In this document: positions 27,506 through 64,000 of the stretch, in pieces
Position numbering within the stretch: the stretch's first letter is position 1
How the letters are laid out: every line of letters starts with the position of its first letter
Assembly: GCA_009103225.1 (NCBI GenBank)
Contig: RHPI01003009.1
Coordinates: 210,091 to 274,090 of the forward strand
DNA from: Chlorokybus atmophyticus
Lineage: Eukaryota > Plantae > Mesostigma and Chlorokybus algae
Direction: 5' to 3'
Length of the DNA stretch: 64,000 bases
The notes under the pieces: generated by a model
Told to the model about the DNA's origin: nothing
The model's input: the letters and a program-made list of their open reading frames with translations, nothing else
Databases searched by the model: none
Position numbers and translations under genes: made by a program

Positions 27506-28525
27506 CTACATGAGTTTGACGGCAGGACCCAACACTAGGAACGTGGATTGCAGCTTGCCACAGATGCGGGCTAGCAACTTCACCGGCACATGTCGCGTAT
27601 CTCGAAAGGCGCGCTGCAAGTCTCTGAGCAAACCATCCCGCTTCTTGCCAGGGACACAAATGGTGCCAGCGTGTGTATCCCACAGAAAGCCGAGGAAGAT
27701 GATGACTCTGCTAAGCACAGTCTGTGCCTTGGTGTTGATTACTAACCCGCACCACGCTGCGTCTGCTTGCACCACAGCCAGGGTGGAAGCATGTGCTGCC
27801 CGTGAACGAGCAGCAAAGAGGAAGTCATCAATGTAGGGCAATACACGGATGCCTAGCACACGCCAGCGCCTCACCAACTGCTTCATCACTTTGGTGACTA
27901 CAAAGCACGCCGTGCTCAACCCAAATGGCAGCGAGCAAAAGTTGTACACTTTGCCCGCAAATGAGAACCCCAGATAGCCCCAAAAGGCGGGGTGAATGTC
28001 CACATGGTGGTATCCAGACTTCAAGTCCGTGGAGAACAACCAGTCCTCGGGTTGCAGCAAGTCTGGGATGCTGCGCACATCTTCATACTTGAACGGCGTG
28101 TTCACCAAGTAGGAGTTGACATAGCGCAACTCCATGATGAGGCGTAGCTTGCGCCCATCATCCACCACATTGAGTGGGCTCACCACGAGGGGGGGCGTGA
28201 CACACTCTTGTGCAGCCCCACTATGAACCAAGTTGGCAATGGCCGCTGCAGTGAAGTCCGCAAACTCGTGTACCCCCTTATGGTTGGTGAACGCCCATTC
28301 TGGCGGTGGGTCTTGAGCCCACGGTAGTTTGTAGCCATACTCCACCCAAGACAAGACCATAGTAGACTCGCAGAACGCGCGCCATGCAGGAAGAGCATTA
28401 CGCAATCGATGACGCATGTAAGGTCCCTCAACGGTGAGGTTTGCAGGCACACGCGCAAACTTATGATGCTTCATCCAGTCGTGCACAAGTTCCTCCTCCG
28501 TGCTAGTGTACGCCCCTGTAGACAA
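27506..28525 (-). CDS. DIRS-type reverse transcriptase, truncated before RNase H
   Basis: YGYKLPW, SPLNVVDDGRKLRLIMELRYVN, TDLKSGYHHV, LPFGLS, YIDD. Confidence 0.9.
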   Translation of the reverse strand: MSTGAYTSTEEELVHDWMKHHKFARVPANLTVEGPYMRHRLRNALPAWRAFCESTMVLSWVEYGYKLPWAQDPPPEWAFTNHKGVHEFADFTAAAIANLVHSGAAQECVTPPLVVSPLNVVDDGRKLRLIMELRYVNSYLVNTPFKYEDVRSIPDLLQPEDWLFSTDLKSGYHHVDIHPAFWGYLGFSFAGKVYNFCSLPFGLSTACFVVTKVMKQLVRRWRVLGIRVLPYIDDFLFAARSRAAHASTLAVVQADAAWCGLVINTKAQTVLSRVIIFLGFLWDTHAGTICVPGKKRDGLLRDLQRAFRDTRHVPVKLLARICGKLQSTFLVLGPAVKLM

Positions 28526-30789
28526 CTGGTGTTACTATGGATGCACTCCTAGCATACCCGCGTGTGCACATTGCAACACCTAAACCGCCACAACTATTGC
28601 ATATAGTGTCCAAATGCCATGAGGACGGGCTCATTGCAAAGCTCTAGTGCTCATAAAGGCAACCACCGAGTAGCATTGATGTTCAATGGCGTTCAAGGGC
28701 CCAAAGCCCTTAGCATCACCAATTAGCCATAATCGGCGCAAACAAAGTCAGAAACCGATTCTGATTTAATCAATCTAAGCCTCTCCGCCTCATTGTGGTG
28801 ATCCCAGAGTGTCTCCCATTTAAGGGTGTTCTGAGACCACAAAACAAAGTTACAAGCAAAATGGTGATTTCGCCAAGTTTAAACCACCAAACTTCCACTT
28901 TCATTCATCACGCTCGCAGTTTCATTCACTAATATAGCAGTCGCAAACACAAAAAGGTGCCCCACCGGGCTACCGCATCAACGAGTGCAAGTGTACAGCT
29001 ACGGGGCTGTCACATCAGCTACAAAGCTGTTCTATCGGCCCCCACGGTCAGTGGAGGCCTTACGGCAATAGGCACGCAGGTGCCCAGGCTCCCCACAGTT
29101 GTAACAGGTGCGGGTGTCACGCTGGCCCCGTGTAGAAGCGGCCTGGGATTGCATGGGAGCGGTCCTGTAGCTGGTGTTCCCCGCACCAGATGCGTAGGAC
29201 CCAGAGTAGCGAGGGGGGTACTGGCCCCGCCCCTTGTTAGGAGTGTAGGCAGGCTTTGCCTTGTGCTTGGGCTGCGCCGCAGCCGCCTCCTTGATTGCCT
29301 TCTTAAGGCGCTTCGCCTCGGCGTCATCCGCGGCCAGAGGATGTCCCTCGAGCTCCTCCACCACTTTTCAGTTGTGTTTGTTGGCTACTTCTAAGTAGTG
29401 AAACTGTTTGAATACCTCCTCAAATGCTGCGCACAAAGCACATGTAAGCAACACGAGTTGCATCAGCACACTGGCTCAAAGCCATAGGGTCCAGCGCCAA
29501 GCGCACCCACATCCCACCCTCAACTTTACCTACCACATGCCCTGCGGATGCGGATGCATATGATGTGCCCTGTTGTGCTTGTTACCTTGCTGTGAGGTAG
29601 TCATAATGTGAATACAGGGGTGAGCATGCAAAGGTGTTAAGTGCGGGCCCTCCCCCCCCGCCGGATATGGGGGGAGGAGGGATGCGGAACAAATGCATCT
29701 CGTGCATCTATGTTGACCAGGGGAAGCGCCTTTATAAGGCCCATAGCGCACGCATGTGCAAGTGGGCCTGGACCAAGTCCACACCCACATGATGATGTTT
29801 GTATGGACGCTCGTGCACATGACGCTACGAAGAATGAGCCCACCTTTCATGTTCTCCCGGCGACCACGAGCGAAGTGAAGATCGTTGAGAAAATGAGCGG
29901 GCACACGGTCGAAGGAGCTCGCCGCCGCGCCAATGTGAGCCGCCACATCCACATGTTGCCGAGCCCGCTTCTTCAAGTTCTCCTTCCAAGGGGTCGCGGG
30001 CTCGGTGTAGCGGTTGCACAACGCCGCCACCCGAGCATTAGGAGTGTTGGAGTCGCTCTCGCGGCGAAGGATGCTCACAAGTAGTGGATGGTTGGGCTCG
30101 TCCATGGGCTCATCAAGAGGGATGGCGGGCGCTTTTCCACGCTTGAGGCGGATGTTTTTCGCTTCCAACTCCTCCAACCTCTTCACCATGGCCTCCGTGG
30201 GTGTGGTGGAGGCGTTGGAAACCGGGCTTGCCGCCCTCTTTCTACGCTTGTAAGTGACCGCGAGTCGTCGTCGTCATGATTATCCTCATCATCACCATCA
30301 CCATGACCATCACCATCACCATCACCATCACCATCACCATCACCATCCTTGTTCACCTCCTCCCCATCCACCACGGGGGGGTGCTTTCTTTTCTCCTCAC
30401 TCTCCGTTCGCCTCTCCTCCTCCTCACTCAAGGTCTGGCGACGCGGACTTCTCGCCTTTGCCAAGCGGTTGGAGGCCATGAGAGCCGCCGCCGCCGAGGC
30501 TTCCACGTCCTCGCATTGCCCTTGGGCGCTTGCTTGCGCCCGCGTCAACCTCTTGTCCATGGTGAAGGTCCCCCTTCCCCCTCACCACACTCGCCACCCT
30601 CGCCAAGGATGGCGCCGCCGTGCTAGGGTTTCAAGCGACTAGATAAGGAGCTTGTGGCTCACACTCACGCCTAGTGAGTGCTTGTGCCCCCTAGTGCCCG
30701 ATGCACTAGGGGCACAAGAGTCTCATAACTCATTAATGAGTTCTTGAGTTCATGGGCGCGCATTTCATGCGCTTCATGAACTCATATAC
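27506..30789 (-). mobile_element. DIRS/PAT-like tyrosine-recombinase retrotransposon, 5' half (A repeat, gag, RT)
   Basis: A repeat 30585-30789, ORF1 from 30560 ending in the CYNCGEPGHLRAYC knuckle, and a DIRS-type RT. Confidence 0.88.
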
Positions 30790-32613
30790 CACCGAGGAAA
30801 AGGAGCCAAGCACCTACCATAAGACCATTACAGCTTCTAATGATGAGTTCTTGCGTAAGGCCATAAATGAGGAGATTGCTTCGCTACACGCTAACAAGAC
30901 TTGGGTACTTGATCAGGTTCCACAAGGCGTCAAGCTTATGCCTGTCGAGTGGGTGTACAAGGTCAAGTGTGATGGCAAGGGCAAGATTGAGCGCCATACA
31001 GCGCGACTTGTGGCAAAGTGCTTCCTACAAGAGGAGGGCATTGACTACAAGGAGGTGTTTGCGTCTGCTGGTAAGCACACAACCTTCAAGGCACTGCTTG
31101 CAAAGGTTGCTATAAAGGACTTGGAGCTGCACCACCTGAATGTGAAGACTGCTTTTCTCTATAATGAGTTGGATGAGCGGATCTACGTGCAGCAGCCTCA
31201 AGGTTAAGAGGAGGGAGGCTCACACAAGGCTTGTTTGCTACACAACGCTCGTTATGGGCTTATGCAAGCGCTGAGAGTCTTGCACATACGGCTCAGCAAG
31301 GAGCTAGAAAAGATGCGCGATCAGCAATTATTATTAAACCCTGGGCTCTTCATTGGTGAAGGCGGCCAAGTGTGGTTGCTGATGTACGTGGACGACATCA
31401 TCTTGGCATCACATGACACTGCACCAATATCACATACTAAGGTGACACTGCAATCTGCTTTTAAGACTCGGGATCTTGGCAATGCATGCCTGTTCCTCGG
31501 CATTGTCATCATTCGAGAGAGAGTTGCAAGGACGATTAAGATCACTCAAATGCCGATGGTCCTAGATGTACTCTAGAAGGTCAAGTTGCAAAGCGCCAAG
31601 GGCAAGGCAACACCACTGAGCGTGGGAGTACATGTACTCACAAGACACTACCGCAGTGCTTGATAAGGCTATATATCCATATGGTGAGCTGATAGGAGCC
31701 TCATGTGCATATCCATCAGCACGAGGCCTGACGTCGCACAAGCTGTGGGAGCCTTGGCAAGACACATATAAGCACCAACCATGGATCACTGCAAGGCGGC
31801 AAAAGGAGTTCTTCGCTACCTTAGTAGCACCCCGGACATGGGCATTACTTTTGGAAGGACAAAGGACATCACAATACACGGTTACTGTGATGCGGACTAT
31901 GCGGGGGACCTCGACACGAGGAGGTCTACCACATGATACACTTTTCTAATGGGAGGAGGCGCCCTCAATTAAAACAGCCGACTACAACCAATGATTACTG
32001 CATCAACCACTGAGGCCCAATACATGGCGGCTTCATCTGCGGTGAAGGAAGCGTTATGGCTTCGCAAGTTGGTCACTGACTTGGGACATGCAACGAGCCG
32101 TGTCACAATTATGCGTGATAACCAGGAAATGCTCAAGTTAAGCATGCACCCCATTACATCAGCCAGGTCGAAGCATATCGACATCATGCACCACCTGGTG
32201 AGAGAGAGAGTTGCTTGAGGCAAGGTAGGGTTTAGGGATGGCAGCACGGAGGATATGCTCGCAAACTGCATAAACCAAACCACTACCACCAACCAAGTAA
32301 ACTGGTTGCTTGCGCTCGGAGTGTTACAGATACTCTGCTCGCATGGGAGTGTTAAAGGTACTTTGGTAGGCGCCTTAGCTAAACTTATACAATCATCTTC
32401 ACTTTAGGAGTTACGGTCAGTTGCCGTTATGGGAGTTACAGTCCACCCTAGTCAATGTTGACTTTGACTTTGACTATGACCTTTAACTTGGACTAGTGTT
32501 GACTAGTGTTGACATTAACTAGCATTGACTGATGTTGACTAGCACGCGCTAGTGTACCATATAAGATACTGTATGTTGTGCACTACAGTAAGATCCACTG
32601 TGCTCTGTTGACA
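30790..32613 (+). mobile_element. Copia LTR retrotransposon B, 3' part (RT-RH, 3' LTR 32350-32613), degenerate
   Basis: KEPSTY...EEIASLHANKTW, RLVAK, YVDDIIL, GYCDADYAG, RSKHIDI. GGGAG followed by TGTTAA...TTGACA. Confidence 0.85.
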
Positions 32614-42927: not shown

Positions 42928-43717
42928 NNNNNNNNNNNNNNNNNNNNNNNNNNNNNNNNNNNNNNNNNNNNNNNNNNNNNNNNNNNNNNNNNNNNNNNNN
43001 NNNNNNNNNNNNNNNNNNNNNNNNNNNNNNNNNNNNNNNNNNNNNNNNNNNNNNNNNNNNNNNNNNNNNNNNNNNNNNNNNNNNNNNNNNNNNNNNNNNN
43101 NNNNNNNNNNNNNNNNNNNNNNNNNNNNNNNNNNNNNNNNNNNNNNNNNNNNNNNNNNNNNNNNNNNNNNNNNNNNNNNNNNNNNNNNNNNNNNNNNNNN
43201 NNNNNNNNNNNNNNNNNNNNNNNNNNNNNNNNNNNNNNNNNNNNNNNNNNNNNNNNNNNNNNNNNNNNNNNNNNNNNNNNNNNNNNNNNNNNNNNNNNNN
43301 NNNNNNNNNNNNNNNNNNNNNNNNNNNNNNNNNNNNNNNNNNNNNNNNNNNNNNNNNNNNNNNNNNNNNNNNNNNNNNNNNNNNNNNNNNNNNNNNNNNN
43401 NNNNNNNNNNNNNNNNNNNNNNNNNNNNNNNNNNNNNNNNNNNNNNNNNNNNNNNNNNNNNNNNNNNNNNNNNNNNNNNNNNNNNNNNNNNNNNNNNNNN
43501 NNNNNNNNNNNNNNNNNNNNNNNNNNNNNNNNNNNNNNNNNNNNNNNNNNNNNNNNNNNNNNNNNNNNNNNNNNNNNNNNNNNNNNNNNNNNNNNNNNNN
43601 NNNNNNNNNNNNNNNNNNNNNNNNNNNNNNNNNNNNNNNNNNNNNNNNNNNNNNNNNNNNNNNNNNNNNNNNNNNNNNNNNNNNNNNNNNNNNNNNNNNN
43701 NNNNNNNNNNNNNNNNN
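42928..43717. other. assembly gap (790 N)
   Basis: Run of N. Confidence 1.
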
Positions 43718-47100: not shown

Positions 47101-48203
47101 ATGAATAGAGGGTCAAGTTGAATCACTTCTTGCGGCGGCAGCTCAGCAAGCTGTGTGACAAGCAGGCAGCAGCTGCGAGTATTGACCTTGGGACCCTTGT
47201 CGGAGAACCTGAAGCGGAAGTGGGCACATCAACGGGTCATGCATCTGCTGATGGTCGTCATCGTTGTTGGGAGTTTGGTCTACCTCCTCCACAACCAGGC
47301 GATGCGGTGGAGCTGATTGGGCTGCTGCTGCATGAGACAAGACTGCGGCTCTTTGATGCCTATGCTGATGGCAACTGCTTCTACTCTTGCATTGCCCAGT
47401 CGCCCTCCCGTTAACGCTGCGTGCCTGAAACGCGTGGGCGCAATCAACAACGAGGCTTTCTTGCGAAGCATTGTTGTAACAGCCTGGGGCATGTTTTGTA
47501 TTTTATTGTACATAAAGTACTTATTTTGCCTTTTTTGCTGGCTTGATGAGGGCTTTTATGAGCTTTATTAAGCCCATGTTGCGCCTGCCCCTGCTGCCGC
47601 GCGCGACTCGCCTGCGACCTGCTCGACAGCAGCTAATTCGGCGACGTGACCCACCTGCCACGCGGTTGTGACACAGCCGCTGACTGGACACGCGCTGTGC
47701 AGTGCCAGGTGACGCGGAGTGCACAGTCACACAGCCGCCGAAAGCCCAACGCGCGTGGCGGGGAGCCTGCACTTGGACCTGCCCTTAGATTTGGTAGTGA
47801 ATAATGAAATGCCTGTTAATTAGGCTATTTCTTCCTAGTGCTTGTATAAATAGAAAAACCCTGTGTAATGCAACCAACTTTGTTTTCTGCTCTCTGCTGT
47901 GAGTATGCTGGTGCATGCTTGAGGGAGTTGTGGTCCAAGGCACACTGCTGCGTTCTTACTTGGCATGAGAAGTAGTAGTGTTCGTGTGCGTGGGCGCGCT
48001 CGACGCGTGCGTGCGTGCGCGAGTGAAGGCAAGGTTCCGGTGTGAAGATTGTGCTCAGCTGCACACATGTGTTGTATGACTTGTGTGCTGTGTATGTGAG
48101 CACGAGCATCGTTACAGTGGTATCAGAGCCCTTGGAGGGGTTGGGTTTGTTGTTTTAAGGGGATATTAACTATCTCTTTGGTGTGTGAGGTATTTTTCTG
48201 TTT

Positions 48204-49205
48204 ATGGACGCTACCATGGATGATGCACGTGTTGTGGAGCTTCAGCAAGTGCTGGTAGCTGCTCATGAGGAGCTGCAACGTGTCCAAGCATCTGCCCAAG
48301 CTCAAGCGGCACAATTTCAACAAGCCATGGCGCAAGCGCGCGCGTCCACGCCCGTTACAGCTCCTGTGGTTGCCCCATCAGCCTCTTGTCATGTGAAGCT
48401 ACGAAAACCAAAGCCATTCAAGGGTCAGAGGGACGGTGACTGTGTGGAGGAATGGGTGTTTGCCGTTTCGACATGGTTAAAGCTCACCGAGGTACCTATA
48501 CATCTCCGTGTCGATGTGGCTGCTACTTTCTTTGAGGGAGCTGCACTTGTGTGGTGGCGTCATCGTTGTGCTCGTGTGGAAGCTGGTCTTGAGGTTCCTT
48601 TCACTACCGTGGCTGAGCTGGCTGCTGAGGTGAAGAAACAGTTCGTACCGGTGGAGAGTGTGAAGACGGCACGCGACCAGCTCTCTACGCTTGTGCAAAC
48701 GCAGTCCGTGATGGCCTATACCTCTGCGTTTCAGCGTCTTGTGCTCTCTGTACCGAACATGACTGAGGAGGAGCAGCTGGACCGCTACACGCGCGGGAAG
48801 ACTCTTTGTCGCAAGGAAGTTGAACTTCCTGACGCCAAGACTCTCGCGGAGGCCATTTGCATTGCTGAGCGCACGGACGTGTTGTACTTCAAGGGGGCTG
48901 CCAAAAACACTGATCGTGGACATTACAATCACTTCCGTGGAGGTTCGTATCGCTCATACGCATCTGTTGGGGCTGGTTCGGGAGCTGCAGCAACTCAGGG
49001 GGCTGGCTTGGGACCAACTCCAATGGAATTGGGTGCGCTCCATGTTGCTATGAAGGCCCCAAAGGGTCGGGAGGCTGCCAAGGCTGTTCGGAAGTGCTGG
49101 GAGTGCTCTTCTGCTGATCACGTGCGCTCCAACTGCCCTATCTATAAGGCAAAGTCTGCTGCACATGCCCGCAACGCTCGCNTGCTCGCAGCGGTGGACG
49201 TGTGA
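48204..49205 (+). CDS. gypsy gag with zinc knuckle
   Basis: PKPFKGQRD, retrotransposon gag core, TPMELG, CWECSSADHVRSNC. Confidence 0.9.
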   Translation: MDATMDDARVVELQQVLVAAHEELQRVQASAQAQAAQFQQAMAQARASTPVTAPVVAPSASCHVKLRKPKPFKGQRDGDCVEEWVFAVSTWLKLTEVPIHLRVDVAATFFEGAALVWWRHRCARVEAGLEVPFTTVAELAAEVKKQFVPVESVKTARDQLSTLVQTQSVMAYTSAFQRLVLSVPNMTEEEQLDRYTRGKTLCRKEVELPDAKTLAEAICIAERTDVLYFKGAAKNTDRGHYNHFRGGSYRSYASVGAGSGAAATQGAGLGPTPMELGALHVAMKAPKGREAAKAVRKCWECSSADHVRSNCPIYKAKSAAHARNARXLAAVDV

Positions 49206-52200
49206 ACATGGTGGAGGAGGAGATGTTGCAGCCGGGAAACGGCTCACCTCAGTAGCTGGAGAGGCTCCTGCTGAGGTGGTAATGCAGCCTCACTATGATG
49301 TTGAATGTCCAGCGGCTGGCGTGGAAGCGTTGTTGACGGTTGGCGGCATGTGCGCAACGGCAACGCAAAGCGGTATGGTTCGAGTGCCCGACAAGGCGAG
49401 GCAGCTGTTGGGAGTCGTGGCTCTGATCCGTGAGGGCAATGGGCCATGGATGGAGTGCAAGATGCTGGTGGATTGCGGCGCAAACAGCAATTTCATGAGT
49501 CGCGAGGTTGCGCGTCGGCACAAGTGGTTGTCATGGGCAAATGCCGGCTCGGTGGCGCTAGCGGACGGCTATGCGCTAGCATGAGGAGCTTCCAAGCAAA
49601 GCAAAGAGCTTGAAATGCACGTAGGGATGATGAAGGATCGCCTACGGTTTTGCTGCATCGAGCTGAACAATGGCTTTGATGACATTTTGGGGCTGCCTTG
49701 GCTTTGGTCACATAACCCCGCCATTGATTGGAGGAAGCGGGTGCTCACTACCCCGAAAGCTGGTGGTGAGGTTTTGATGTGCTTCAATGCTTCAATGCAA
49801 GGCGCGTGTGTGGTTCAAGAGCGTGTGAGCTGCGTCGAGGCTGCTAGCAATGTGCTGCATGCGCGTGACGCGCACGACACGACGGCGCGCCAGCAAGCTG
49901 CACCACAACATGCTTCTAGCTCAAGGGGAGGGGTTCCAGAGCTGGTGTCACAAGTTTCTAAGACCAAGATGGAGCAGATCTGGTCCGGGAACAATGTGAA
50001 GGATGCATGGCTGTGCATGGTGCGTGAGACACCTCCCAAGTCGGACTTGGAGCTGGTCGGCACTGGTTCGGAGAGTTCGAAGGACCCCGAGGTGCAGAGG
50101 TTGCTTGAAGAGTTCAAAGACGTCATGGTGGATGGGCTACCAGCTGGTCTGCCGCCCACGCGAAGTGTTGATCACCGTGTGGAACTGATAGAGGGCGTGC
50201 ACAAGCCGCCGTACCGACCGGTGTACAAGTTGTTTCCGGCTGAACTCGAAGAGGCGAGGAGCCAAGTCGAGGACCGTCTACAACGTGGGTACATCAGGCA
50301 CAGCAAGTCTCCTTACGGTGCACCTATCCTATTTGTACGTAAGAAGAGCGGAGCCTTGCGCATGTGCATCGACTATCGGCCACTCAACAACATCACCAAG
50401 AAGATGTGTTCCCTTTGCCACGCATTGATGAGTTGTTGGAGCAGCTCGAGGGTTCTGAGTTCTTCTCAAGCTTGGACCTAGCCGGTGGCTACCATCAGAT
50501 CCGTGTTGCGCCCGAAGACGTTGAGAAGACGGCTTTCAACACTCGCTATGGCCACTATGAGTGGTTGGTGATGTCCTTTGGCATGACAAATGCTCCGGCA
50601 ACCTTTCAAACCTTGATGAATGAGGTCTTTGCTGATCTGATTGGCAAGGGCGTGCTAGTGTACCTCGACGACATCCTTGTGTACACAAAGAGCAAGAGAG
50701 AGCACGTGGCATTGTTACACGAGGTGATGCAGCGTTTACGTACACACAAGTTGTTTGCTCAGCTCAACAAAGTGCCGCTTCTTGCTTGAAGAGGTAGAAT
50801 ACCTTGGCCACATTGTATCCAAGCAAGGAATCAAGGCAGATCCAAGCAAGCTTGCCGCGGTGCGCGATTGGGCTGCCCCGAAGGACGTGAAGGGTGTCAT
50901 GTCGTTCCTAGGGCTTGCCGGCTACTATCGTAAGTTTGTAAAGGGCTTTTCGCACTTGGCGGCACCATTGACGGCATTGTTGAGGAAGGGGGTGGCTTGG
51001 AGCTGGTCGGAGGCTGCAACAAAGGCATTTTCCGACTTGAAAGAGGCCCTGACATCGGCTCCCGTGCTGCTGCATCCCAACATGCAATTGCCCTTTGTGG
51101 TGGCGTGTGATGCGTCCGACAAGGCTATTGGGGCTGTTTTGCAGCAGGATCACGGCAACGGCTTGCAACCGGTGGCCTATTTCAGCAAGAAAATGAGCGG
51201 GGCTGAGCTCAACCACCCCGTTCATGAGAAGGAATTGCTGGTGCAGGTGCTAGCGCTACGGCAATGGCGTTGTTTCCTTGAAGGCAAGCGGTTCACACTT
51301 GAGACGGACCACTCGCCATTAAGGTACCTTCAAACGCAGCCTCACCTCTCACGGCGGCAAGCTCGTTGGCTCGAGTTCTTCCAACTCTTCGACTTTGAAG
51401 TGAAGTACAAGCCGGGCTCTTCAAATAAGGTTGCGGACGCATTAAGCCGTCAACTCAACGCGCTTGAAACGGTGGTGCAAGTGCAGCCCAAGTGGCTTGA
51501 CCAGATCCGTGCCTTATTGCATGAGGACGCGGTGAGGGAAAAGACCATTAAGGCGTTGGAGAATGGGACTGAACATAGCGGCCTTTGGGCATTGAAGGAC
51601 GGGCTGCTATGGCATGGCGATCGCATGTACATACCCAACATTGCGCACATGCGCGTGGCATTGATGAAGGAAGCGCATGATGTGCCAATGGCTGGTCATC
51701 GAGGGCTGGAACGGACACTAGCTTTGTTGAAACAGAAATTTTTTTGGTCGGAGATGCATCGTAACGTTAAGGACTATGTGGCATTATGCGACACTTGGCA
51801 AAGGGTGAAGGCGAGCAATCAACGCGCCAGTGGGCTGCTCCAACCATTGCCGATACCTTTGACGAAGTGGGAGCAAGTTACTCTTGACTTCATCACGGGG
51901 CTGCCACGGGCACGTGAAGGGCATGATGCTATCTTGGTGTTTGTGGACAAGACTAGCAAAATGGTGCGATTGGCGCCATGTACGGAGACTTGCACAGCTC
52001 CCGAGGCTGCCAAGTTGTTCATCAAGCATGTGGTGCGCTCTCATGGCCTTCCAAAAAGCATTATCAGTGATAGAGCCCCGCGGTTTACTGGCAACTTTTG
52101 GAGAGCTCTCCACGCAACTCTAGGCGCGAGCTTGAAGTTTAGCACCGCGTACCACCCTGATACGGACGGCCAAACGGAGCGCGCCAACCGCGTCATTGAA

Positions 52201-52962
52201 GACATGCTACGGTGCTATGTGAACATCCGCCAAGACAATTGGGGAGACATGCTGGAGCTGATTGAGTTCACCATTAACAACTACAAGAGTGCAAGCACGG
52301 GTGTGACACTTTTCCTTATGAACTATGGGCAACATCCATTGACGCCATTGACGGCGTGGGTGCCTAGCATGCAAAGTTCAGATGTAGAGGCCGTGGACGG
52401 CTTTCTTGAAAGGTGTGCCGACATTACCAAGACAGCTCGAGAGGCTCTGCTTGTGGCGCAAAACCGGCAAAAGCAATACGCAGATGCGCGTCGCAAGGAT
52501 GTTGTGTTCGAGGAGGGTGACCTTGTAATGCTTTCAACCAAGCATGTGCAGCTGGTTACGGGGGTGCGCAAGCTGAGTGAGCGATGGTTTGGGCCCTTTA
52601 AAGTGATCAAGGTCATCTCGAAGGTGGCCTACGAGCTGGAGCTGCCCAATACCATGCATGTGCACCCTGTTTTTCATGTCTCGCTTCTTAAAGGTTATCG
52701 AGGGGAGCCACCAGCTCATCCGCCTCCAGATGTGGTTCGTGAAGGTGAGGCTGAGTGGGAAGTGGAAGCAATTGTCACGGACAAGCTGATCCGAGGCGTG
52801 CGCAAGTATTTGGTGAAGTGGCGTGGCTATCCAATGCACGAGGCGACATACGAGCCCGAGGAGAGCTTTACCAATGCCAAACAGGTCTTGCAAGACTACA
52901 AGGCCAGAGGAGGCAGTCGTCATCTTCGAGGACAAAGCTCCCCCGGGGGGGAAGGGGTGTAA
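49206..52962 (+). pseudogene. gypsy pol (PR-RT-RH-INT-chromodomain) with stops and frameshifts
   Basis: [34 protein letters not shown] zinc-finger remnant, LDFITGLP, GQTERAN, EWEVEAIV...YLVKWRGY. Frameshifts near 50405 and 50765. Confidence 0.92.
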
Positions 52963-54420
52963 CAGCCTGGGGCATGTTTTGTATTTTGTTGTACATAAAG
53001 TACTTATTTTGCCTTTTTTGCTGGCTTGATGAGGGCTTTTATGAGCTTTATAAAGCCCATGTGGCGCCTGCCCCTGCTGCAGCGCGCGACTCGCCTGCGA
53101 CCTGCTCGACAGCAGCTAATTCGGCGATGTGACCCACCTGCCACACGATTGTGACACAGCCGCTGACTGGACACGCGCTGTGCAGTGCCAGGTGACGCGG
53201 ACTGCACAGTCACACAGCCGCCGAAGGCCCAATGCGCATGGCGGGGAGCCTGCACTTGGACCTGCCCTTAGATTTGATAGTGAATAATGAAATGCCTGTT
53301 AATTAGGCTATTTCTTCCTAGTGCTTATATAAATAGAAAAACCCTGTGTAATGCAACCAACTTTGTTTTCTGCTCTCTGCTGTGAGTATGCTGGTGCATG
53401 CTTGAGGGAGTTGTGGTCCAAGGCACACTGCTGCGTTCTTGCTTGGCGTGAGAAGTAGTAGTGTTCGTGTGCGTGGGCGCGCTCGACACGTGCGTGCGTG
53501 CGCGAGTGAAGGCAAGGTTCCGGTGTGAAGATTGTGCTCAGCTGCACACATGTGTTGCATGACTTGCGTGCTGTGTATGTGAGCACGAGCATCGTTACAA
53601 TCGTGCTGGACAATAGCCAAGAGCTGCATACGAAAGATCAAGCTGCTAAGTTGCGCAAGATGTGTGCTGACCGGGTTAACATTCGTTGGTTACGGACGTA
53701 TGATAACTACGGGGCCTCTGATGACATGGGCGAGGACTACCAGAAGGCCGCCAAGAAATTTCGGGTAAAAATGAATCTCGATGGAAAAGATGAAGGTGAT
53801 GCAGCTGTTGTTGCTCTGAAGAAAGTGATGGGTCATGAGGGTGTTTATGCGGATCAACTGCGATTGGCGCTGCTGGCGCACACATTGGGCATTCGCATTG
53901 GCACCGTGCAGCTCAAGGAGGTTGGTGACTGCAAGTACATCCTATGAAGCGGAAGACAAGGGAGTACTCAGCAAAGGGGATGACGGGAGGTATTATAAAC
54001 CCGATGATAAAGGAAAGCTGCAGTATATCAAGCTTGTGGTGCTGATTGGCGAGGATGTTCAAAAAGTGGCTGGCCAAGTGATTACTGGCAATACAGACGC
54101 GAGCAAGGCCTGCGCGCAATACATGTCTCTTGGCGATGTGAGTGGTAGGCTTCCATGGCAGCTCTGTGACATGCCACCAAAAGTCCTGCACTGCCTGTGC
54201 CCTGACGGTCCTCCGCAGTCAGCATCTAGTGCCACTCCAGGCGCCTACATCCTCAAGTAGACCCCCTATGCAATCGCAAGCTGGGTGTGTGCAAGAGGCT
54301 GAGGCCCATGCCAAGGGAGAAGGCAAGGTTGAGACCCAGGCAAGCGCGAAGGTCCAAAAGCCAAAGCTGAGGATGGGTCTAGAGTGCATGAAGAAGGTCG
54401 AGGCCAGCTTGAAGCAGCAA

Positions 54421-54665
54421 GCACAGGACAAGGCCAGGCAGAAGCTTGCTGAGGCCAAGGCCAGGCAGGCGGGCGAGGCGAAGACCAAGGCTGATGCTGA
54501 AGCCAAGACCAGGCAGGAACAGGCTGAGGCCAAGGCCAGGCAGGCGAGCGAGGCGAAGACCAAGGCTGATGCTGAAGCAAAGGCCAGGCAGGAGCAGGCT
54601 GAAACTGAAGCCAGGGCCAGGCAGGAGCAGGCTGAGGCTGAAGCCAAGGCCAGGCAGGAGCAGGT
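54421..54665 (+). repeat. coding tandem repeats (AEAKARQ / AKTKADAEAK; Ala/Glu/Lys-rich coiled coil)
   Basis: Repeated GAGGCCAAGGCCAGGCAG units in ORF 54142-54891. Confidence 0.85.
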
Positions 54666-54933
54666 CAACCAACAGGTTAAGGTGGAAGTCCAGAATCAGG
54701 CGGAACCCATGAGCCCAGCTGATGAACAGGTGAGCACTGACATGCTGTCTGCGTGCAAAAGCAAGTGTGGAGTTGCGCAATGTGGCACCGAGCTTGATGC
54801 AATGCAAGGCAATGAGAGCTCTGCTGATGAATCTGGCACATCAACTAGTAGTCTTTCCTCTGGTGTTCCTCGTCGTGCCACCACAAGCTAAAAGTGCAAA
54901 CGCCGTCGTACTCGCAGCCGAGCTCCTGCGCAA

Positions 54934-55150
54934 ATGGACAACACCCCTACCGGCGCTTTTAAAAAGCTGCGCCATCTGCGGCAGGCAGGTCGCAAAGTGG
55001 ATGAGTTTCACGCGCAGTTTGAACATCTGTGTATGGTTGCCAACGCAACAGCGCTGCAGGTGGATGATGCCCTCAAACTATAGCTTTTTTTCAAGGGGCT
55101 TAGGAAAGGAGTGCGCAATTGCGTTGCGAAGGCCAGAATTGGCGGGATGA
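54934..55150 (+). pseudogene. retrotransposon gag (capsid CTD)-like domain
   Basis: GAFKKLRHLRQAGRKVDEFHAQFEHL...DALKL*LFFKGLRKGVRNCV; in-frame TAG at 55081. Confidence 0.5.
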
Positions 55151-55606
55151 TTGGTTCAACGAGCTTGTGCGCACTTGCAAGCAAAATGAAAACGAGCTGC
55201 ATGAGACTTTGCAAAAGCACCGTCTTTATCGAGAGAATTTCCGCACGCAAAGCATACCCATGGAGATGTTAAAGTTGCAAAAACACGAACACATTGATGA
55301 TCGGCGGCAAAGCAAGAAACTAGCCAAGAAAGTGTCAACATGAGCGTGAGCGAGCAGTGATAGGCCAGTAGCCAACACTCAAGCAGCAGGAGCAACTAAA
55401 GCATCAACTCTTTCAGGAGCGTGAGCAAAAGCGGCAGGAGCGGAAGCAACAGTGCAAGCAGGAGAAGGAGCAGCGGAAGCAGCGGCGCGAGCACAAAGAG
55501 CAGCAGCAGCGGCAACCTCAGTGAAACCTTACCATTCTGCAGGTGTGATCACAAATGAGACAGTGGCAATCAAGAGAGCTTACAACTGCAAAGTCCTCTA
55601 CGTGTC

Positions 55607-57240
55607 TCAGTAAAAAGGAGGGTAATCGATATTGAAACCTATCGCTTCCAGCAACAGCCTGCCCACATGTTCAGAGTAAGTCGGTGAAATAGCATTCTTG
55701 ATTTCCGATTCCGCATCCATCCACTCCACCTGCATGGCGGACTGCCACCCTGCAATCGTACCATGGCAAGATGCTTGGCCGTATACCGGGTATATTTGCC
55801 TCTCCCCAGGTAGCAACCGCCGGCGCTGCTCCGGGTGGGTGGCCAGCTCTCCAAGTGCAGAACCAGTGTGGTTGCATTTTAAGTCTGAGCGCACTAGAGG
55901 GTTTGTTTCAAAGATGCGATGGCGATACACATCCAACTTGAACATGCTGCCACGCAGCTTAAGGTGAGTTGTCATGTGTCATGACGCGCCTGCGACAATC
56001 TCTATCACCCATGCCTTGCCGCTTGACTGCGACGTGGCTCTTATGGGGTCAATCAGGTTGACGTGATCCCATCGATATCCGTATGCGGACCGTTGTGTCA
56101 TGGGAATGGCTCCATTAAGAGCTTGGCATGGAGGACTTGCCCATACTGCATTGTATGCTGACAGGTCAGCGTCCGGTGCATCCATTTGGCAGAACTTGAA
56201 TGGGTATGCCGGCTGTGGCTTATTGTCTATACCCTCAACATCAAACCCAGCCCTGTACAGACCCATAGCAACACCACCGGCACCACAAAAGAGATCCAAT
56301 GCGCGTGGCCTGTAACGTCTACCGCTTGAGTCGCATGGTGTGCGAGTTACGAGAAGGGGTGGTGGCCTGGGCCAGTGATCGAGCTTGCGACCAGGCAAGT
56401 CTTGCAGTCTCAGACAGCTTTGACCACCAACTCGAACCATCACTGTAACGAAATCTTGCATGTTGTAACCCTCACGCACAGCTGCGATGTTCCGGTTTTT
56501 TAACAAGATGTGGTGCAGCCGCGGGTCCTCATAGTCGTCGTACTTGATGGTATGTTTTCTCGAGCCACATGTTTTACTGAGCCAGTGCTTGCGTGAACAC
56601 GCGCACGTACATCACATGCTCTGCATTATTTGGACACATGTACCTGTGTTGGCATTGAAAGTGATGATGCGGCGTGCATACCAGGTGCTCATTCCAGGCC
56701 AATATACCATGACGCGGCTTGCTACCAAAGACTGCCCCTCATCAACAATCTCCTTTCGCCACGCACTTATTGTCGCGGTATCGTCAATTGCGTCAACTAC
56801 TGCTACATTCCCCTTCAACATTGAAGAGTGAGTTGCTTACATATGAGAGCGCTATTTGTGCGCCAGGACAGGACAGTTCAACTCACTTTGTTGTTGTGAT
56901 CATCTAGGACGGTGGACTTGCCGCGACCGTTGCGCGCGAGCTGACGTCGCACCACATCACACTCCCGCCCATTTTGGTATGCTCCGGGTCAAGGCAGGTG
57001 ATCCATGGGTCGCCGGCCCACTCAAACTCGGAGAGCGAGCATTGCAGGCAAATGCATTCCTCGACAAAGAAGTCTAGCTTTATGTATTTTGCTTGAAGCC
57101 TGCACTGCTTCACATTATCTCCCCGGGCCTTATGGTGCCAGCAGGCTTAATAGAAGCCATACTGCTCACTGTACAGCTTGCACTTCTCTTCAAGCTATTG
57201 CAGCCGTTTCAAGTTGCCGTTTCTAACCAAGTATGCTCTG
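55607..57240 (-). pseudogene. Tudor-fused prokaryote/phage-type C5 cytosine DNA methyltransferase (MTase domain 55607-56320; one in-frame TGA at 55979-55981)
   Basis: Motif I ALDLFCGAGG, GFDVEGID, motif IV ASPPCQ, VIEIV (ENV position), GSMFKLDVYRHRIFETN, AMQVEWM...NAISPTYSEHVG. Upstream Tudor-like LVASRVMVYWPGMSTWY...KHTIKYDDYED. The 5' extent is tentative. Confidence 0.8.
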
Positions 57241-57559
57241 CAAAAACTGTACACCTTGACGCCGCGCATACTGCCGCCACGCAACCTACCATTCAAACCC
57301 TAGTAGCTGATGCACTTCGCGGAAGAAAAACTGGAGCACGTACGCAAATTACGGAGCACATCCGGATTGAAGCCGTGGCTTATACTGGATCTAGCTTTCA
57401 ATTTAGGATCAGGATTGACGGCTCTAAACCCTAATTCTACAACAGCGATGCTAGAGCGGCGGCGGTATCAGCTCAGGGCTCTAGATAGTTTGGTGGTTGT
57501 ATGCCAGGATAATAGTTGCAAAAACAACTTTGTGGCATGAGCTACAATCGCAGGTGTTT

Positions 57560-59550
57560 CTGCGAGGATTGCCAAGGGAGCAAAGTGGTCACACACAAGC
57601 ACATTATTAGGGCCAAAAACCATGAGTACCATGGCACAAGAATGTGGATGGGCACTCCTAAAGCTGTTGAACCGCAATATCGTGATCTTCTCGAACCCGA
57701 TGAACTTGAAGAACCTGACGCTGTTATTGCTGCTGCAACCTGCTGGTGCATGAGGCACAGTCTGAGGTGGAGCTGTTCTTCCCGCGGACTTCGCTCACAA
57801 TGATGCTGCACCTCCTTGGCCATCTACCAGAGCAATGCATGTGGCTTGGTCCGGTGCGCGATCACTGGGAGTAGGCCGATGAACGATTTATGCAGTGGGT
57901 GAAGCGCATGATTTTTGCCAGGCAGCATGTGGAAGCAAGCATCTGCAGAAGGCAAGTCTGGGCCAACTGAAAGTTGCATGCAACCTTTTCGTACTCTCGT
58001 TCTTTGACTTGTGTTAAATGCAAGTTATGTCTGCAGATACTCCATCCAGCTCATGTTAAACACTTATATAGACACTTTGAAGAGGCTTTTTGTCGGCATC
58101 AGTCTGCGATCGGGCAAAGAGCGAGATGTTGACGACGATGTCCTCTGCGGGCGCAGATACCGTGTTGAGTGTGAGAAAGATACCAAGATCAGGCAGGAGC
58201 TGGAGTGGTGGTTGGTCAAAAATGACGATGAGTACAGGCAGCTAAAAGAGTAAGATGCTGTAGCAATCGTTGTTTGGTACGCAATGTCGCCTGCATATTA
58301 TAAGTCCACAATGGGTTGGTAAGCAGAGAATTCAGTCAGGCTATTCACAAACGGCGGAAGACACGCGAAAGGGCCAAAGCACAAGGGAATCTCGTGACCA
58401 ATGACATGGAGCACATGACTGAGCTGCATCATTGGCGTGGACCTGATAGGGAGCTTACATAACACGAGATGGAGCTGTTGAGTGGTCCCATTTTTCCAAA
58501 GTACATCATGAGGTACTACAGAGCGCGCTACAAGGACATTGGCCAGTTCAGAGCAAAAGACACTAAGAAGAAGCTCCGTATCAAGGACTGCGGAGCGTTT
58601 ACCGTTAGGCGTGACTCAAATGACCCAACCAAGAAGATCCACTGGTATGGCAGGGTGCTGTGACGGGAAGGTACATCAAACCACCACAAATCGGCAATAA
58701 AAGCATCAAGTCTTTTGTGGTCGAGTGGGCTGTGACATTGATTATCGAAGCTTGAGACCCGGGTTCGATTCCTGCCTTGCACACAAATTCCGCGGTCGTT
58801 GTTTCTCGATCCGATAAAATCGTAAATGGTCACTTCATAAGTGCCATCATTGATAGGTCGCGACTTACCTAATGGCAGTCGCGTTGGACTGACCAGTTCA
58901 GTTGGCGCGGCAGGACGCAGCCTGCCTATTGCGATGCGACCTGTGGGGCCGGCAGCGGTGCGCTATGCGCGCGGTGACCGGTATGGGCCTAAATTGGCCG
59001 GTCCTTGAGTAGTGGGGCCGGTGACCGACCCTAAATCAGACCCCTGGGAAGATTCCCAGCTGATGGGCGCCAGCTGCCGAGGATGTCAGCGTTCTTAAGT
59101 GGGGGGCAATGGAACGGGAAGGTACATTAAATTACCACAAATCGGCCATAAAAGCATGAAGTCTTTTGTGGTTGAGTGGGCTGTGACAGGTGCAGTCTTT
59201 TCATGTTGTCATGGTAGCCGGTTGAGAGCACCAGCTCCTCAGAGCGAGGTGGTACATGAGCAACCAGGTGCAGCACATGGGAGGCTTTGCAATCCTGAGG
59301 AAAGACAAGCCCCGCTTTGCAGAACAAACCTACCTTGGTTGCAACCTAGTAAGTAGGTGTGTTGCAGCAGTTTTTGCGAGTTAATAGTAGAGTGAGATTG
59401 GGTGATACATGTCCTTGCTGGCAGGTCAAGGGCCAATGGTTTGAGGGTATTGACCCGTATGACACCAAAATAGCAGTAGCGCTTGTCGAAGACAGGAGAA
59501 GCCTCATGTGCCGAGGTGTGCACCGCGACACTCCGGTGAGAGCAAATTTG
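57560..59550 (+). pseudogene. CACTA/EnSpm TnpD transposase, C-terminal half (DUF4218- and DUF4216-like), spliced and degenerate
   Basis: KNHEYH; ELFFPRTSLTMMLHLLGHLPEQCMWLGPVRDHWE*ADERFMQWVKRMI..RQHVEASI; WYGRVL...SFVVEW. The DDE core was not found. Confidence 0.8.
58738..59113 (+). mobile_element. 376-bp insertion with a Pol III B-box (SINE-like), flanked by 75-bp direct repeats
   Basis: GGTTCGATTCC near 58762. Repeats at 58663-58737 and 59114-59188 (6 mismatches). Confidence 0.55.
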
Positions 59551-59790
59551 TTTGTGAGAATCTGGGTGTCCTCATAGTTTTCCGGGTCCTAGCATCACAT
59601 ACAACCATCTTGTGTACATGCATATAGTGCAGGGTGACCACTGCGAAACCAACAGCGCTTCGCGCAAGGTGTCATGGACCACACGCCGTGACTGATATTT
59701 TGAGTACATGAGGTACTCTTTGCTATTGTGATGCTGCATATACCTACTGTTGTGTGACTGCAGATCTGGGCACCTGACCTTGGTTTGCAG

Positions 59791-60130
59791 GATGAGACCA
59801 GGGCTAGAGCTGGATGCATTGGAGAATCGTGAACACGAAGACTATTGCTTTGTCTGCAAGGATGGCGGTAGCATATGTGGCTGTGATGCAGAAGGCTGCT
59901 GGAAAAGCCACCACGCACGCTGCGTCACTGTACCACGTGTGGAAGATGACCATTGGGAATGCCCAAGGCACAAGTAAGCTTCAGTATTCAATGAATGCAT
60001 GGTGTCTAAAGTCAACAAATTCTACAATGATCACTGGAACGCAGGTGCCATGTGCACAGATGCAATGAACCAGCTCGACAAGTATGCGCGACATGCCCAA
60101 ACAGCCTCTATTTAAGTCATGCTGTTGGTA
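59791..60130 (+). pseudogene. NSD-type PHD finger plus C5HCH module (two exons)
   Basis: HEDYCFVCKDGGSICGCDAEGCWKSHHARCV...WECPRH|KCHVHRCNEPARQVCATCPNSLYLSH. Confidence 0.8.
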
Positions 60131-60389
60131 ACATCTTTGCGGTCACATGCTCGCAATGCGCTGCATACGAAGAAGGTGGGGCTCCGGCACAGCTTTTAAG
60201 GGATAGCCTCGCGCGTCGTGCTCTGCCGGGCAGCAGCGGTAGGGTTTCACAACCACCGACTGAGAGCGTGGGTAAAAGCTTTGTTCAAGAGTGCAGGGAT
60301 GAGGATATGAGTGGTAAGCAGCAACGTGCTGGCGCTTCTTGGTTTGCGTTGCGGCGCTGATTGCATAATCCTACCTTTTTACGCTGCAG

Positions 60390-61444
60390 AGCCAGTCCCG
60401 ATGGAACTTGATGATGAGGATGCCACTGGGGAACGTCCCCAGCACCCAAGTCAGGTAACCACAACGGCTGCAGTAGTTGTGGAACTCGTGGACAGCGATA
60501 GTGACATCATGGTGCTGGACGGGCCGGGTGCTGAAGTTGAGGCGTCAACACCTGTGCCCTTGTTTATTTACCCTAATGCAAATGCATGTGATGCGGTAAC
60601 AGTGTTTGAAGCGGACAGAAAGTTTTTGGACGGCAGACAGGAGCTCAACGACGCCGTGCTCCACTTTTTTTGCAGGTATGAGCCTTGCGTCGTTGGTGTT
60701 GTGCAGCTGTGTTATGTATGTGTCACGCACGCGCAATTATAAGGAAGAGGAGGTCGTGGGCAGAGCTGACGGCATTCATGTGAGGCTGTTCAACCCGCAT
60801 TTCTACACCAAAATTGTGCACTGCCATGAACAACATAATTGGCACAGTGGCCATCACAGGATAGATTGGTGGGATAGCGATACGTTTTTCAAGAACTTGC
60901 TGGCAGCAATTGTCAACCCAGACAACTGGTGAGAGTGAAGCCAAGTTCTCGCACTGCAGTGCTGCTGTACTTGCTTGCATGACTTTGAAGTCTGCATGCC
61001 ACAGGACTCACTGGAGTCTGCTGCTGGTGTGCAATCCTGGAGGGGAACTTGGAAGCAACACGCCGCCCTTGATCGTCAATCTCGACTCCCTTGGTCTACA
61101 TCGCAACGTCGACGGACCAATGCGCGCTTATCTAAACTATATGTGGGGCAGGAAGCATGAAAGCGAGTCGCAACAGCGCTTCTCTCCCGCAAACGTCCCG
61201 CTACTTAATCCATGGGTAGGACATGTTGTTTTGGCCTGGTGATGAGGTCACGCCCTCTCCTGGCACAATCCCTATGTAGATGCACATACGTTTGGTTCCC
61301 CCGCATTGACATAGCGTGTTCGTGCAAGTCCCTTAGCAGAGGGATGGAGTTGCGTGCGGGCTGTTTGTCATGGTTTACCTTGACAAGTTTATAGATGTAA
61401 TACAAGCTGGTCCAGTCGAGCAAAACGCCCCAAGATTTCAGCAG
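60390..61444 (+). pseudogene. ULP1 / peptidase C48 SUMO-protease domain (spliced; premature TAG at 61334)
   Basis: LFIYP...DAVTV...LNDAVLHFF, FNPHFYTKI, THWSL (His 61009), NLDSL, VP*QRDGVACGLFV (Cys 61355). Confidence 0.85.
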
Positions 61445-61794
61445 GTACAGCTCATGCATTGAAATGTCTCCATATGGCAGCTGCCTTAGTGCAAAGTCGT
61501 GTAGGTTGACATGTGTTGAGCAACCAGATGGTGTGGGTGTGTGCAACGCAGATACAAAAGGATTGGTTTCGTCCAAAAGAGGCAGACAGCTTAAGGCGAT
61601 GACTGCGAACACTCATGGACAGCATGCCAGCACAGCAAACATCACGGCGGATGTGAAGTAGCAGGCGGTTGGTACATAGCTAAATTGTAGTCAAACGCAC
61701 AAGTTCATTGGCCAGCTGTGTAATAGTAGCCCAAGCTAACTTTGTGCTTAATAGAATTTGGAATGCAAGCCGTTAGCATGCTTGCCTTTTCAAC

Positions 61795-61945
61795 GGCACT
61801 TGGGACTTAGTGTAATTTCACAGCGGCAGTTTTGCTAAGTGGTGTTGAACATTCAATGGCACTTGGCACTTGGTGTAATTTCACAGCGGCAGTTTTGTCA
61901 AGTGGTGTTGAATTTTCGATGGCACTCGGGACTTGGTGTATTTCA
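61795..61945 (+). repeat. 63-bp tandem repeat, about 2.4 copies
   Basis: Units start at 61795, 61858 and 61921 (GGCACTTGG.ACTT.GTGTAATTTCACAGCGGCAGTTTTG...). Confidence 0.9.
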
Positions 61946-61955
61946 TGCTATATGT

Positions 61956-62798
61956 ATATGAGTTCATGAAGCGCATGAAATGCGCGCCCATGAACTCAAG
62001 AACTCGTTAATGAGTTATGAGACTCTTGTGCCCCTAGTGCCTCGGGCACTAGGGGGGCACAAGCACTCACTAGGCGTGAGTATGAGCCACAAGCTCCTTA
62101 TCTAGTCGCTTGAAACCCTAGCACGGCGGCGCCATCCTTGGCGAGGGTGGCGAGTGTGGTGAGGGGGAAGGGGGACCTTCACCATGGAGGTTGACGCGGG
62201 CGCAAGCAAGCGCCCAAGGGCAAGGCGAGGACGTGGAAGCCTCGGCGGCGGCGGCTCTCATGGCCTCCAACCGCTTGGCAAAGGCGAGAAGTCCGCGTCG
62301 CCAGACCTTGAGTGAGGAGGAGGAGAGGCGAGCGGAGAGTGAGGAGAAAAGAAAGCACCCCCCCGTGGTGGATGGGGAGGAGGTGAACAAGGATGGTGAT
62401 GGTGATGGTGATGGTCATGATGAGGATAATCATGACGACGACGACCCGCCCGCGGTCACTTACAAGCGTAGAAAGAGGGCAGCAAGCCCGGTTTCCAACG
62501 CCTCCACCACACCCACGGAGGCCATGGCGAGGAAGTTGGAGGAGTTGGAAGCGAAAAACATCCGCCTCAAGCGTGGAAAAGCGCCCGCCATCCCTCTTGA
62601 TGAGCCCATGGACGAGCCCAACCATCCACTATTTGTGAGCATCCTTCGCCGCGAGAGCGACTCCAGCACTCCTAATGCTCGGGTGGCGGCGATGTGCAAC
62701 CGCTACACCGAGCCCGCGACCCCTTGGAAGGAGAACTTGAAGAAGCGGGCTCGGCAACATGTGGATGTGGCGGCTCACATCGGGGCGGCGGCGAGCTC
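61956..62798 (+). mobile_element. 3'-truncated DIRS/PAT-like copy (A repeat plus start of ORF1)
   Basis: Near-identical to the reverse complement of about 29925-30789. Flanked by CTATATGT at 61948-61955 and 62799-62806. Confidence 0.92.
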
Positions 62799-63229
62799 CT
62801 ATATGTTCCCTGAATATGACGGTGACTATGCAATGGTATTTAGGACTCTAGGTTTTTGCGGCAAGCCGTAGCCAGCACCACACACGCTGGGTGATTATTC
62901 TGCTGTTTGGGCACTGACAATTCATTGTACCATATTGGTCATAAAGTACAACTTGACTGACCTTGAATATGCATGAAATACTCAGTTTGAAATTCAAAGT
63001 ATACGGGTTGAAACGAGGTTCAGTGGTATGTATGTTGAATATGAATGCGTCTTGCGGGTGAAGAACGCTGTTCCTTTTTGCAGGGATGGGACAGAAAGTA
63101 CAATAACCATTGGATATTCACGGACAAAAGGCGTGAAACGGATCAAGTCATTAAGATTCAGACGAAATGGCGTGAATAATCGGGGGGTCCCAAAATTACC
63201 GGTGTGTGCTCTTACAAAAGAGTAGACTA

Positions 63230-64000
63230 TACAGTCTACCCCCGTTCAAAGACTTCGGTTTAAGAGAGTAACCCCGTTGAGATCATAAATTTGCAAAAGA
63301 CGAATAATTTTACACGCAAATATCATTGGTTAGTGGAATAGTTTTGTACGCAATAAAACTACAACGGAGGGTTAAAATTTTGAGTGAGCTCAGTCTTGTT
63401 ACGGGAGAATACCTCGTTAATGGCATGCTTTTTCCAATATTATAAGCATAAACATATTATAAGACATAGTTAAGTACATAATCACTTTATTGTTGACTAG
63501 TATGATTTAATTCATGCCACATTAGAATATAATAATGTGGCTTACGGTTATTTCGCAATAGCCTTGTTAGTAAAATATATATAAAATGTATATTGTGTAA
63601 AACATAAGAGAGTATATATTATTGTAAACGCTAAGAGAATAACCCCGTTGATGGAATACAAGCTGAAAGATACACGTGATTTTTATAGCGGAGGTAGATT
63701 GTACAGTTAAGGTACATAGTTGTACCTAATCACATTGAAACATTCATTGTACAGTCTACCCCCCTTTAGAGCATACTGTTTGTTTTCATACATAGTATGC
63801 TCATGGCGGGGTTATGGTCTTGGCAATATTAATATGCTCTTACACATTATGAGCAACTGTATGCTATAAAGCAGTTTAATACGCCCATCACGCCCATTAC
63901 ATCACGCGCATTACGTCACGTCTAATATGCCATCTCGCTTATTACGCTGATTACGTGTTGCACTGTACCCATTACGCCTGGTCCATCACACTCATTACGC
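63230..64000. repeat. AT-rich subterminal-like region with short direct and inverted repeats
   Basis: TAAGAGA.TAACCCCGTTGA at 63261 and 63632; TACAGTCTACCCCC at 63230 and 63750, plus a related inverted copy near 63690; GAGCATA/TATGCTC and ATTACG motif clusters. Confidence 0.75.

Follow-up and report, generated by a model that had tools for sequence, protein, structure and literature searches.

A decayed DNA transposon copy, likely of CACTA/EnSpm type, holding a phage-type cytosine methyltransferase predicted to be spliced to a Tudor domain in Chlorokybus atmophyticus

The explanation that we favour for this locus, and that we hold to be fairly probable, is that a decayed copy of a CACTA/EnSpm-type transposon holds here a phage-type C5 cytosine methyltransferase (MTase) predicted to be spliced to a Tudor domain, and that intact copies of the element would likely dock on nucleosomes carrying methyl-lysine and methylate the DNA nearby. 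The window, i.e. the whole stretch that was analysed, is 64,000 nucleotides of Chlorokybus atmophyticus (contig RHPI01003009.1, positions 210,091 to 274,090). The whole predicted MTase gene lies on its minus strand, 57269-55607, with the following features:

56887..57269, minus strand: probable first exon, Cys-rich and weakly PHD-like, with a GTGAG donor at 56886
56644..56821, minus strand: exon with the first Tudor half (SLVASRVMVYWPGMSTWY), 5' splice site not placed
56560..56643, minus strand: 84-nt phase-1 intron inside the Tudor domain, GT donor at 56643 intact, acceptor reading CGA
56315..56559, minus strand: start of the last exon, with the second Tudor half (KHTIKYDDYE) and a linker, in frame with the MTase
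55607..56314, minus strand: short phage-type C5 cytosine MTase domain, from motif, homology and profile evidence
56296 (motif I), 56128 (Cys of PC), 56002 (EIV), 55981 (in-frame TGA) and 55684 (motif X), minus strand: landmarks of the MTase
55609-55607, minus strand: stop codon of the MTase

The MTase motifs quoted by the first-pass annotation do stand at this place, all on the minus strand and in a single frame; motif I (FxGxG) and motif IV (PC) are both present. The domain is matched at E<=1e-3 by 1878 of 4717 candidates (best 7e-59), and the best 120 of these 1878 relatives are mostly 200-260 residues long with 37-46% identity. PHROG 363 matches it with an E of 9e-18; Pfam DNA_methylase reaches 16.6 bits, below its cut-off of 22. 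Across 111 family sequences the motifs I, IV, VI, VIII and X are kept, and the N of motif VI is nearly invariant. The structure model made from these 111 sequences has a pLDDT of 90; its best PDB fold matches are C5 MTases (DNMT3, M.HaeIII, DNMT1; 11-16% identity) and its best viral fold match is a Pithovirus enzyme (31% identity). Among the eight PDB sequence matches at E<=1 there is no canonical DNMT1, CMT, DNMT3, DRM or DNMT2, and none of the PDB matches is a solved structure of the short family. A PHROG 363 match was found in five of five loci of relatives, four of which have phage replication or recombination neighbours, and for the top homolog, P0002, there are 326 matching annotated phage records, mainly of actinophages. 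Since the PHROG 363 profile, the phage neighbours and the phage records agree and no canonical DNMT is among the PDB sequence matches, the predicted enzyme is of phage type rather than a canonical eukaryotic DNMT, as had been proposed from the motifs. The literature search returned no assay of any MTase of the short family, and the search for longer fused homologs gave two proteins, neither with a reader domain.

The nearest relatives in our trees are not phage enzymes themselves, they form a methylase clade of which several members carry a methyl-CpG-binding-type (MBD) insert, one of them a chlorophyte gene model. Searching 1.84 billion representatives with a profile yielded 5238 matches; of the 150 listed, 28 were scanned and four of these have an MBD, two above the cut-off and two just below. 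That of P0002 scores 34.9 bits and lies inside the variable region, and the insert site is between motifs VIII and X, at the target-recognition region. One MBD-bearing relative is the gene model jgi/Chrzof1/UNPLg00428, where we take Chrzof1 to be the chlorophyte Chromochloris zofingiensis. Seven short phage-type C5 MTases carry an MBD or an insert resembling one, namely P0002, P0247, P0249, P0251, P0252, P0260 and P0394; it is possible that such proteins are 5mC reader-writers able to spread methylation. P0257, P0259, P0264, P0289, P0306, P0312 and P0375 carry another kind of insert at this site and form a sister group (100/93). This second insert was not called an MBD (best E 0.6 against the MBD-insert profile); the contigs of its seven bearers are metagenomic, up to 245 kb, and possibly belong to giant viruses. 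Tandem double MTases were also met (P0122, P0248, P0250, P0254, P0274): the Pithovirus protein among them is made of one short-type and one conventional C5 domain, and the others consist of two short-type units or parts thereof.

The core-column tree places the window enzyme in a 99/94 branch holding 18 of the 66 rows, namely this enzyme, all 13 insert-bearing proteins and four without insert; in the 62-row tree it pairs with P0002 (97/91). Both trees (LG+G4) are unrooted, made from hand-chosen subsets that include no canonical DNMT and omit the long rows P0123 and the second domain of P0122, and the bootstrap of the 66-row tree had not settled (0.938). A first tree of 148 rows was a quick search only, and the conclusions rest on the 62- and 66-row trees. 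The phylogeny called for by the first-pass annotation thus upholds the phage-type short family, with the enzyme nesting among members of about 210 residues in the 62- and 66-row trees, and goes against a direct phage origin, the MBD-insert clade being nearest. The independent acquisition straight from bacteria or phage proposed there is not borne out: because the enzyme branches with MBD-insert methylases, including the chlorophyte gene model, a eukaryote-associated intermediate is more likely, and the phage enzyme probably met eukaryotic chromatin before it joined this element. No MBD was found in the window enzyme or in the six frames of the window, and, among the matches listed, none of the 266 loci of relatives in viral, metagenome and prokaryote-genome scans has the MBD insert. 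The same scans gave, among the matches listed, generic relatives or nothing for the genomic context of the MBD clade, for which reason a giant-virus route of entry is a guess.

A reader split by an intron, as the first-pass annotation had suspected, is recovered in the exons upstream. In a phmmer search the read-through region matches PDB 7DE9 (E 0.036) in two pieces, query 2-29 on chain residues 9-36 and query 58-75 on 37-54; the pieces adjoin in the target, and in the query they are separated by 28 residues, the length of the 84-nt GT intron. Three WD40 chains scored better in the same search (E 0.018-0.021), across intron-derived residues, and Pfam LBR_tudor covers the first half only (E 0.044). 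The E-value alone is therefore not decisive, and the Tudor identity is drawn from the collinear halves and the conserved cage. Once the intron is removed, the halves align end to end with the Tudor domain of Arabidopsis RDM15/PDS5C. 7DE9 is this domain bound to H3K4me1; according to the parts of the paper available, its aromatic cage is formed by W616, Y623 and Y641, and D643, D645 and E647 give the specificity for H3K4me1 and H3R2 (PMC8184781). By alignment, the three cage residues and D643 are common to both proteins, while D645 is E and E647 is P in the alga; the plant domain belongs to PDS5, whereas the algal one is fused to the predicted MTase. We infer that Tudor and MTase would be spliced into one protein. 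The Cys-rich segment that had been noted further upstream is present too and is weakly PHD-like (PHD_Oberon E 0.026); a PDB search gave no useful match for it, and it has no likeness to the downstream PHD.

The copy of the MTase gene at this locus is dead. It has an in-frame TGA at 55981-55979, EIV in place of the ENV of motif VI (56002-55994), no AG acceptor at the Tudor intron and three in-frame stops in the upstream Cys-rich exon. Of the 30 bins into which 53600-63600 was divided, every one is covered in each of the runs X1 and X2, which stem from two studies; X3 covers 8 and X5 covers 2. Versions of the MTase about 96% and 89% alike to the locus were found, at least two in each of two runs. 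The sister contigs that differ at the TGA begin this codon with G and read ENV in motif VI; the G rules out the origin of the stop by CpG deamination of CGA that had been considered possible. The 89% version has ENV and an open frame in two runs, at the listed sites of 55940-56700. The first reading of the copy as dead is thereby completed by a better-preserved sister, and the search for an intact paralogue that it advised has a candidate. The long sister contigs end their alignment at 56559, and a 42-nt contig over the junction differs by two letters; the breaks would fit an intact AG acceptor in the sisters.

The codon analysis used 39 of 40 listed sites, out of 67 variable sites. Over residues 105-182, for which sequence of both versions exists, 15 of 18 codons changed only in the 89% version are synonymous (25% expected, p 3e-7), while among the nine codons that differ in this copy alone seven carry a non-synonymous change (Fisher p 0.004). 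As the changes of the far version are mostly synonymous and the private ones mostly non-synonymous, the comparison indicates that the MTase family was under purifying selection and that this copy decayed later. A CG-biased decay was looked for and set aside: private C-to-T changes fall at CG in 6 of 22 cases (p 0.22), with no excess.

The MTase gene stands head to head with a transposase remnant, about 270 bases separating their probable starts:

57537..57741, plus strand: probable transposase N-terminus with a Cys/His motif, presumably CACTA-like, no Pfam match
57758..57961, plus strand: DUF4218 (E 3.4e-8, 33.8 bits, cut-off 27)
58347..59366, plus strand: transposase-like C-terminal piece (WYGRV...), which we take to be DUF4216-like, no Pfam match, split by an insertion at 58659-59188
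59840..59971, plus strand: PHD-finger-like exon (PHD_NSD E 0.001, below cut-off)
60988..61143, plus strand: Ulp1/C48 protease-like piece (E 0.015, below cut-off)

DUF4218, which we take to be the C-terminal domain of CACTA/EnSpm transposases, is the sole match above cut-off among 21 read-through frames and bears out the DNA-transposon setting first suggested. One contig of the 89% version spans both 57174-57370 and 57529-57741, and extends in the transposase region about 1.4 kb into sequence missing at the locus, which is probably the transposase core; the catalytic core was not found in this copy. No pair of CAC...GTG termini with a 3-bp target duplication was found around the locus within the window, and the right end may lie outside. 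The locus is likely a remnant of a CACTA/EnSpm-type DNA transposon, likely and not proven because the termini were not found, and the MTase gene would lie within the ends of the element.

The surroundings are rich in other insertions. A chromovirus-type Gypsy element at 47475-53599 (LTRs 97% identical, near-perfect 5-bp duplication) interrupts an ORF with what we take to be an OTU-protease-like motif, without Pfam match; this ORF is possibly another gene carried by the same DNA element. The MTase does not lie inside an element coding for reverse transcriptase: the chromovirus, which has LTRs and a target duplication of its own, stops at 53599. Just beyond the MTase stop, 54400-55500 on the plus strand encodes Ala/Glu/Gln-rich coiled-coil repeats with a weak retrotransposon gag match (E 0.002). 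The 530-bp insertion at 58659-59188 is TRIM-like, with terminal direct repeats of about 75 bp, TG...CA ends, a 5-bp target duplication and a tRNA-like motif; it is missing from the sister contigs, and its contig depth is very high. An insertion of about 850 bp, also skipped by the sister contigs, occurs at 61948-62798 and 29913-30789 as an inverted pair 94% alike. Among 2593-4037, 24210-31207 and 27506-28531, Pfam finds a Pogo-type DDE transposase remnant and a reverse transcriptase fragment; the other fragments are presumably Copia-like.

Four other explanations were weighed. The locus could be bacterial or phage contamination, or a misassembly, which a scaffold gap at 42928-43717, between a phospholipase D gene and the MTase locus, would allow. 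That gene is of the host: its product is 98% identical to a jgi/Chlat1 protein, the 119 other listed matches being at 44-52%, and we take Chlat1 to be the JGI label for Chlorokybus atmophyticus. Contamination is unlikely because repeats are common to both sides of the gap and the locus shares its gap-free stretch with the chromovirus; DUF4218 stands in this stretch too, the intron is of spliceosomal type, and the two runs of two studies cover the whole region. We give this explanation next to no weight, and the eukaryotic locus assumed at first stands. It is also very improbable that the protein does not write 5mC in the alga but binds DNA while tethered to chromatin, or acts as a modifier of some other substrate. 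Its family is much shorter than M.HaeIII-type enzymes, with little target-recognition region, and the low Pfam scores and the silence of the literature on assays would suit such a role; the five conserved motifs, the ENV of the sister version and the C5 DNA MTase folds matched by the model point the other way.

In another alternative the gene would be passive cargo, i.e. a Pack-CACTA-like capture of a host or endogenised-virus methylase gene of no use to the element, a working host gene being elsewhere. CACTA elements do capture host sequence, in the available part of PMC13317346, eukaryote genomes contain orphan DNMTs that came from viruses, one Pithovirus-like case being silent (accessible part of PMC12344493), and the ends of our element escaped detection in the window. 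Against this, the gene directly adjoins the probable 5' end of the transposase in this copy and in the 89% version alike, for which reason the synonymous-biased divergence most simply arose inside elements, and orphan DNMTs are generally without companion domains, as far as the same part of PMC12344493 tells; the capture is an unlikely account. Alternatively the intact sister could serve the host as a chromatin enzyme of transposon or virus birth, with a duplicated pseudogene in the window. A host gene would account for introns, for a plant-type reader and for purifying selection, the bdelloid N4CMT is a precedent, and contig depth is uninformative on copy number; the 89% version nevertheless keeps sequence matching the transposase, the PHD-like and the Ulp1-like pieces, with its 1.4 kb more, and we judge domestication decidedly unlikely.

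Transposon-borne cytosine methylases are known in retroelements, as SymbioLINE-Dnmt, SymbioDIRS-Dnmt3 and KnitGypsy-Dnmt3, for which self-methylation was proposed (PMC5890265, in part). The resemblance is that of an algal, including streptophyte, transposon with a C5 MTase under purifying selection; the differences, according to the same part of that paper, are that the retrotransposon genes are intronless, within element ORFs, and Dnmt3-derived in the DIRS and Gypsy cases, whereas ours is a separate, predicted spliced gene beside a DNA transposase and combines the short phage family with a Tudor reader. The word Tudor does not occur in the text of PMC5890265. Mariner-1_OLpv is likewise a DNA transposon with a C5 MTase; it resides in a giant-virus genome, where an endonuclease accompanies it in the manner of a restriction-modification system, and the available part of PMC3627910 reports no histone reader. 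Chromatin-modifying cargo is shared with the TET/JBP-carrying fungal DNA transposons, EnSpm included (PMC12730594, in part), and the Ulp1-like piece recalls the Ulp1 cargo of VANC/KIU-Ulp1 in Vandal MULEs (PMC13317346, in part). In what these two sources describe, TET/JBP and VANC cargo removes or opposes methylation, whereas the Chlorokybus cargo would write it.

The bdelloid N4CMT is a chromodomain fusion. This enzyme and the Marchantia 4mC MTases are, like ours, prokaryote-derived MTases fitted to eukaryotic chromatin (accessible part of PMC12344493), but they have N4C chemistry and are host genes, not transposon cargo. Orphan DNMTs and ChloroDNMT are, in the same part of PMC12344493, lineage-restricted and laterally gained, as is the Chlorokybus MTase; the ChloroDNMT of green algae has its own reader, PWWP, one orphan DNMT is Pithovirus-like, and orphans in general lack a companion such as our predicted Tudor. 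Neither Tudor nor MBD occurs in the text of that paper, and the one supplement searched, in the part available, mentions Chlorokybus and Chromochloris nowhere; the sequences may be present, without a name, in published DNMT datasets. Fusions of readers with transposons are known in general (bioRxiv 2021.11.30.470311, in part). A CACTA-borne C5 MTase, its fusion to a Tudor domain and the MBD-insert clade have no report in the literature searched, which covered few subscription papers.

If the favoured reading of a transposon-borne, histone-guided writer is right, an intact element would encode a (PHD-like)-Tudor-MTase protein, the Tudor domain of which would dock on nucleosomes marked by methyl-lysine, probably H3K4me1, and the docked MTase would methylate adjacent cytosines. 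The enzyme would have descended from the phage-derived methylase clade in which several members have an MBD; the Chlorokybus enzyme has a predicted Tudor and no MBD. The catalytic sites survive in sister copies, so that the family would probably set methylation marks of its own on selected chromatin. In plants H3K4me1 marks gene bodies. In Klebsormidium CG methylation marks the bodies of active genes, in the available part of PMC5890265. The element might then methylate its new insertions and their flanks in gene-body chromatin, which would disguise them as methylated gene bodies or, alternatively, restrain the element itself; this is the likeliest purpose that we see, although taken by itself it is less probable than not.

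On a broader scale we suggest, tentatively and as something a little short of probable, that green-algal genomes have acquired a so far unrecognised clade of short C5 methylases derived from phages, that its members exchange targeting modules, with MBD in several of them and an H3K4me1 Tudor of plant type here, and that a CACTA family uses one of these enzymes as a histone-guided writer. As part of this same tentative reading, the clade perhaps entered through giant viruses, and the element would be the mirror image of the TET-carrying fungal EnSpm elements. If true, transposon-borne cytosine methylases would extend from retroelements to nuclear cut-and-paste elements, and a basal streptophyte lineage would provide a case in which a prokaryotic writer was joined to a histone reader of plant type. 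A catalytic domain of about 230 residues with exchangeable MBD and Tudor modules would offer a natural model for the origins of reader-writer DNMTs, and the question of why a transposon would carry the enzyme that usually silences it would become testable.
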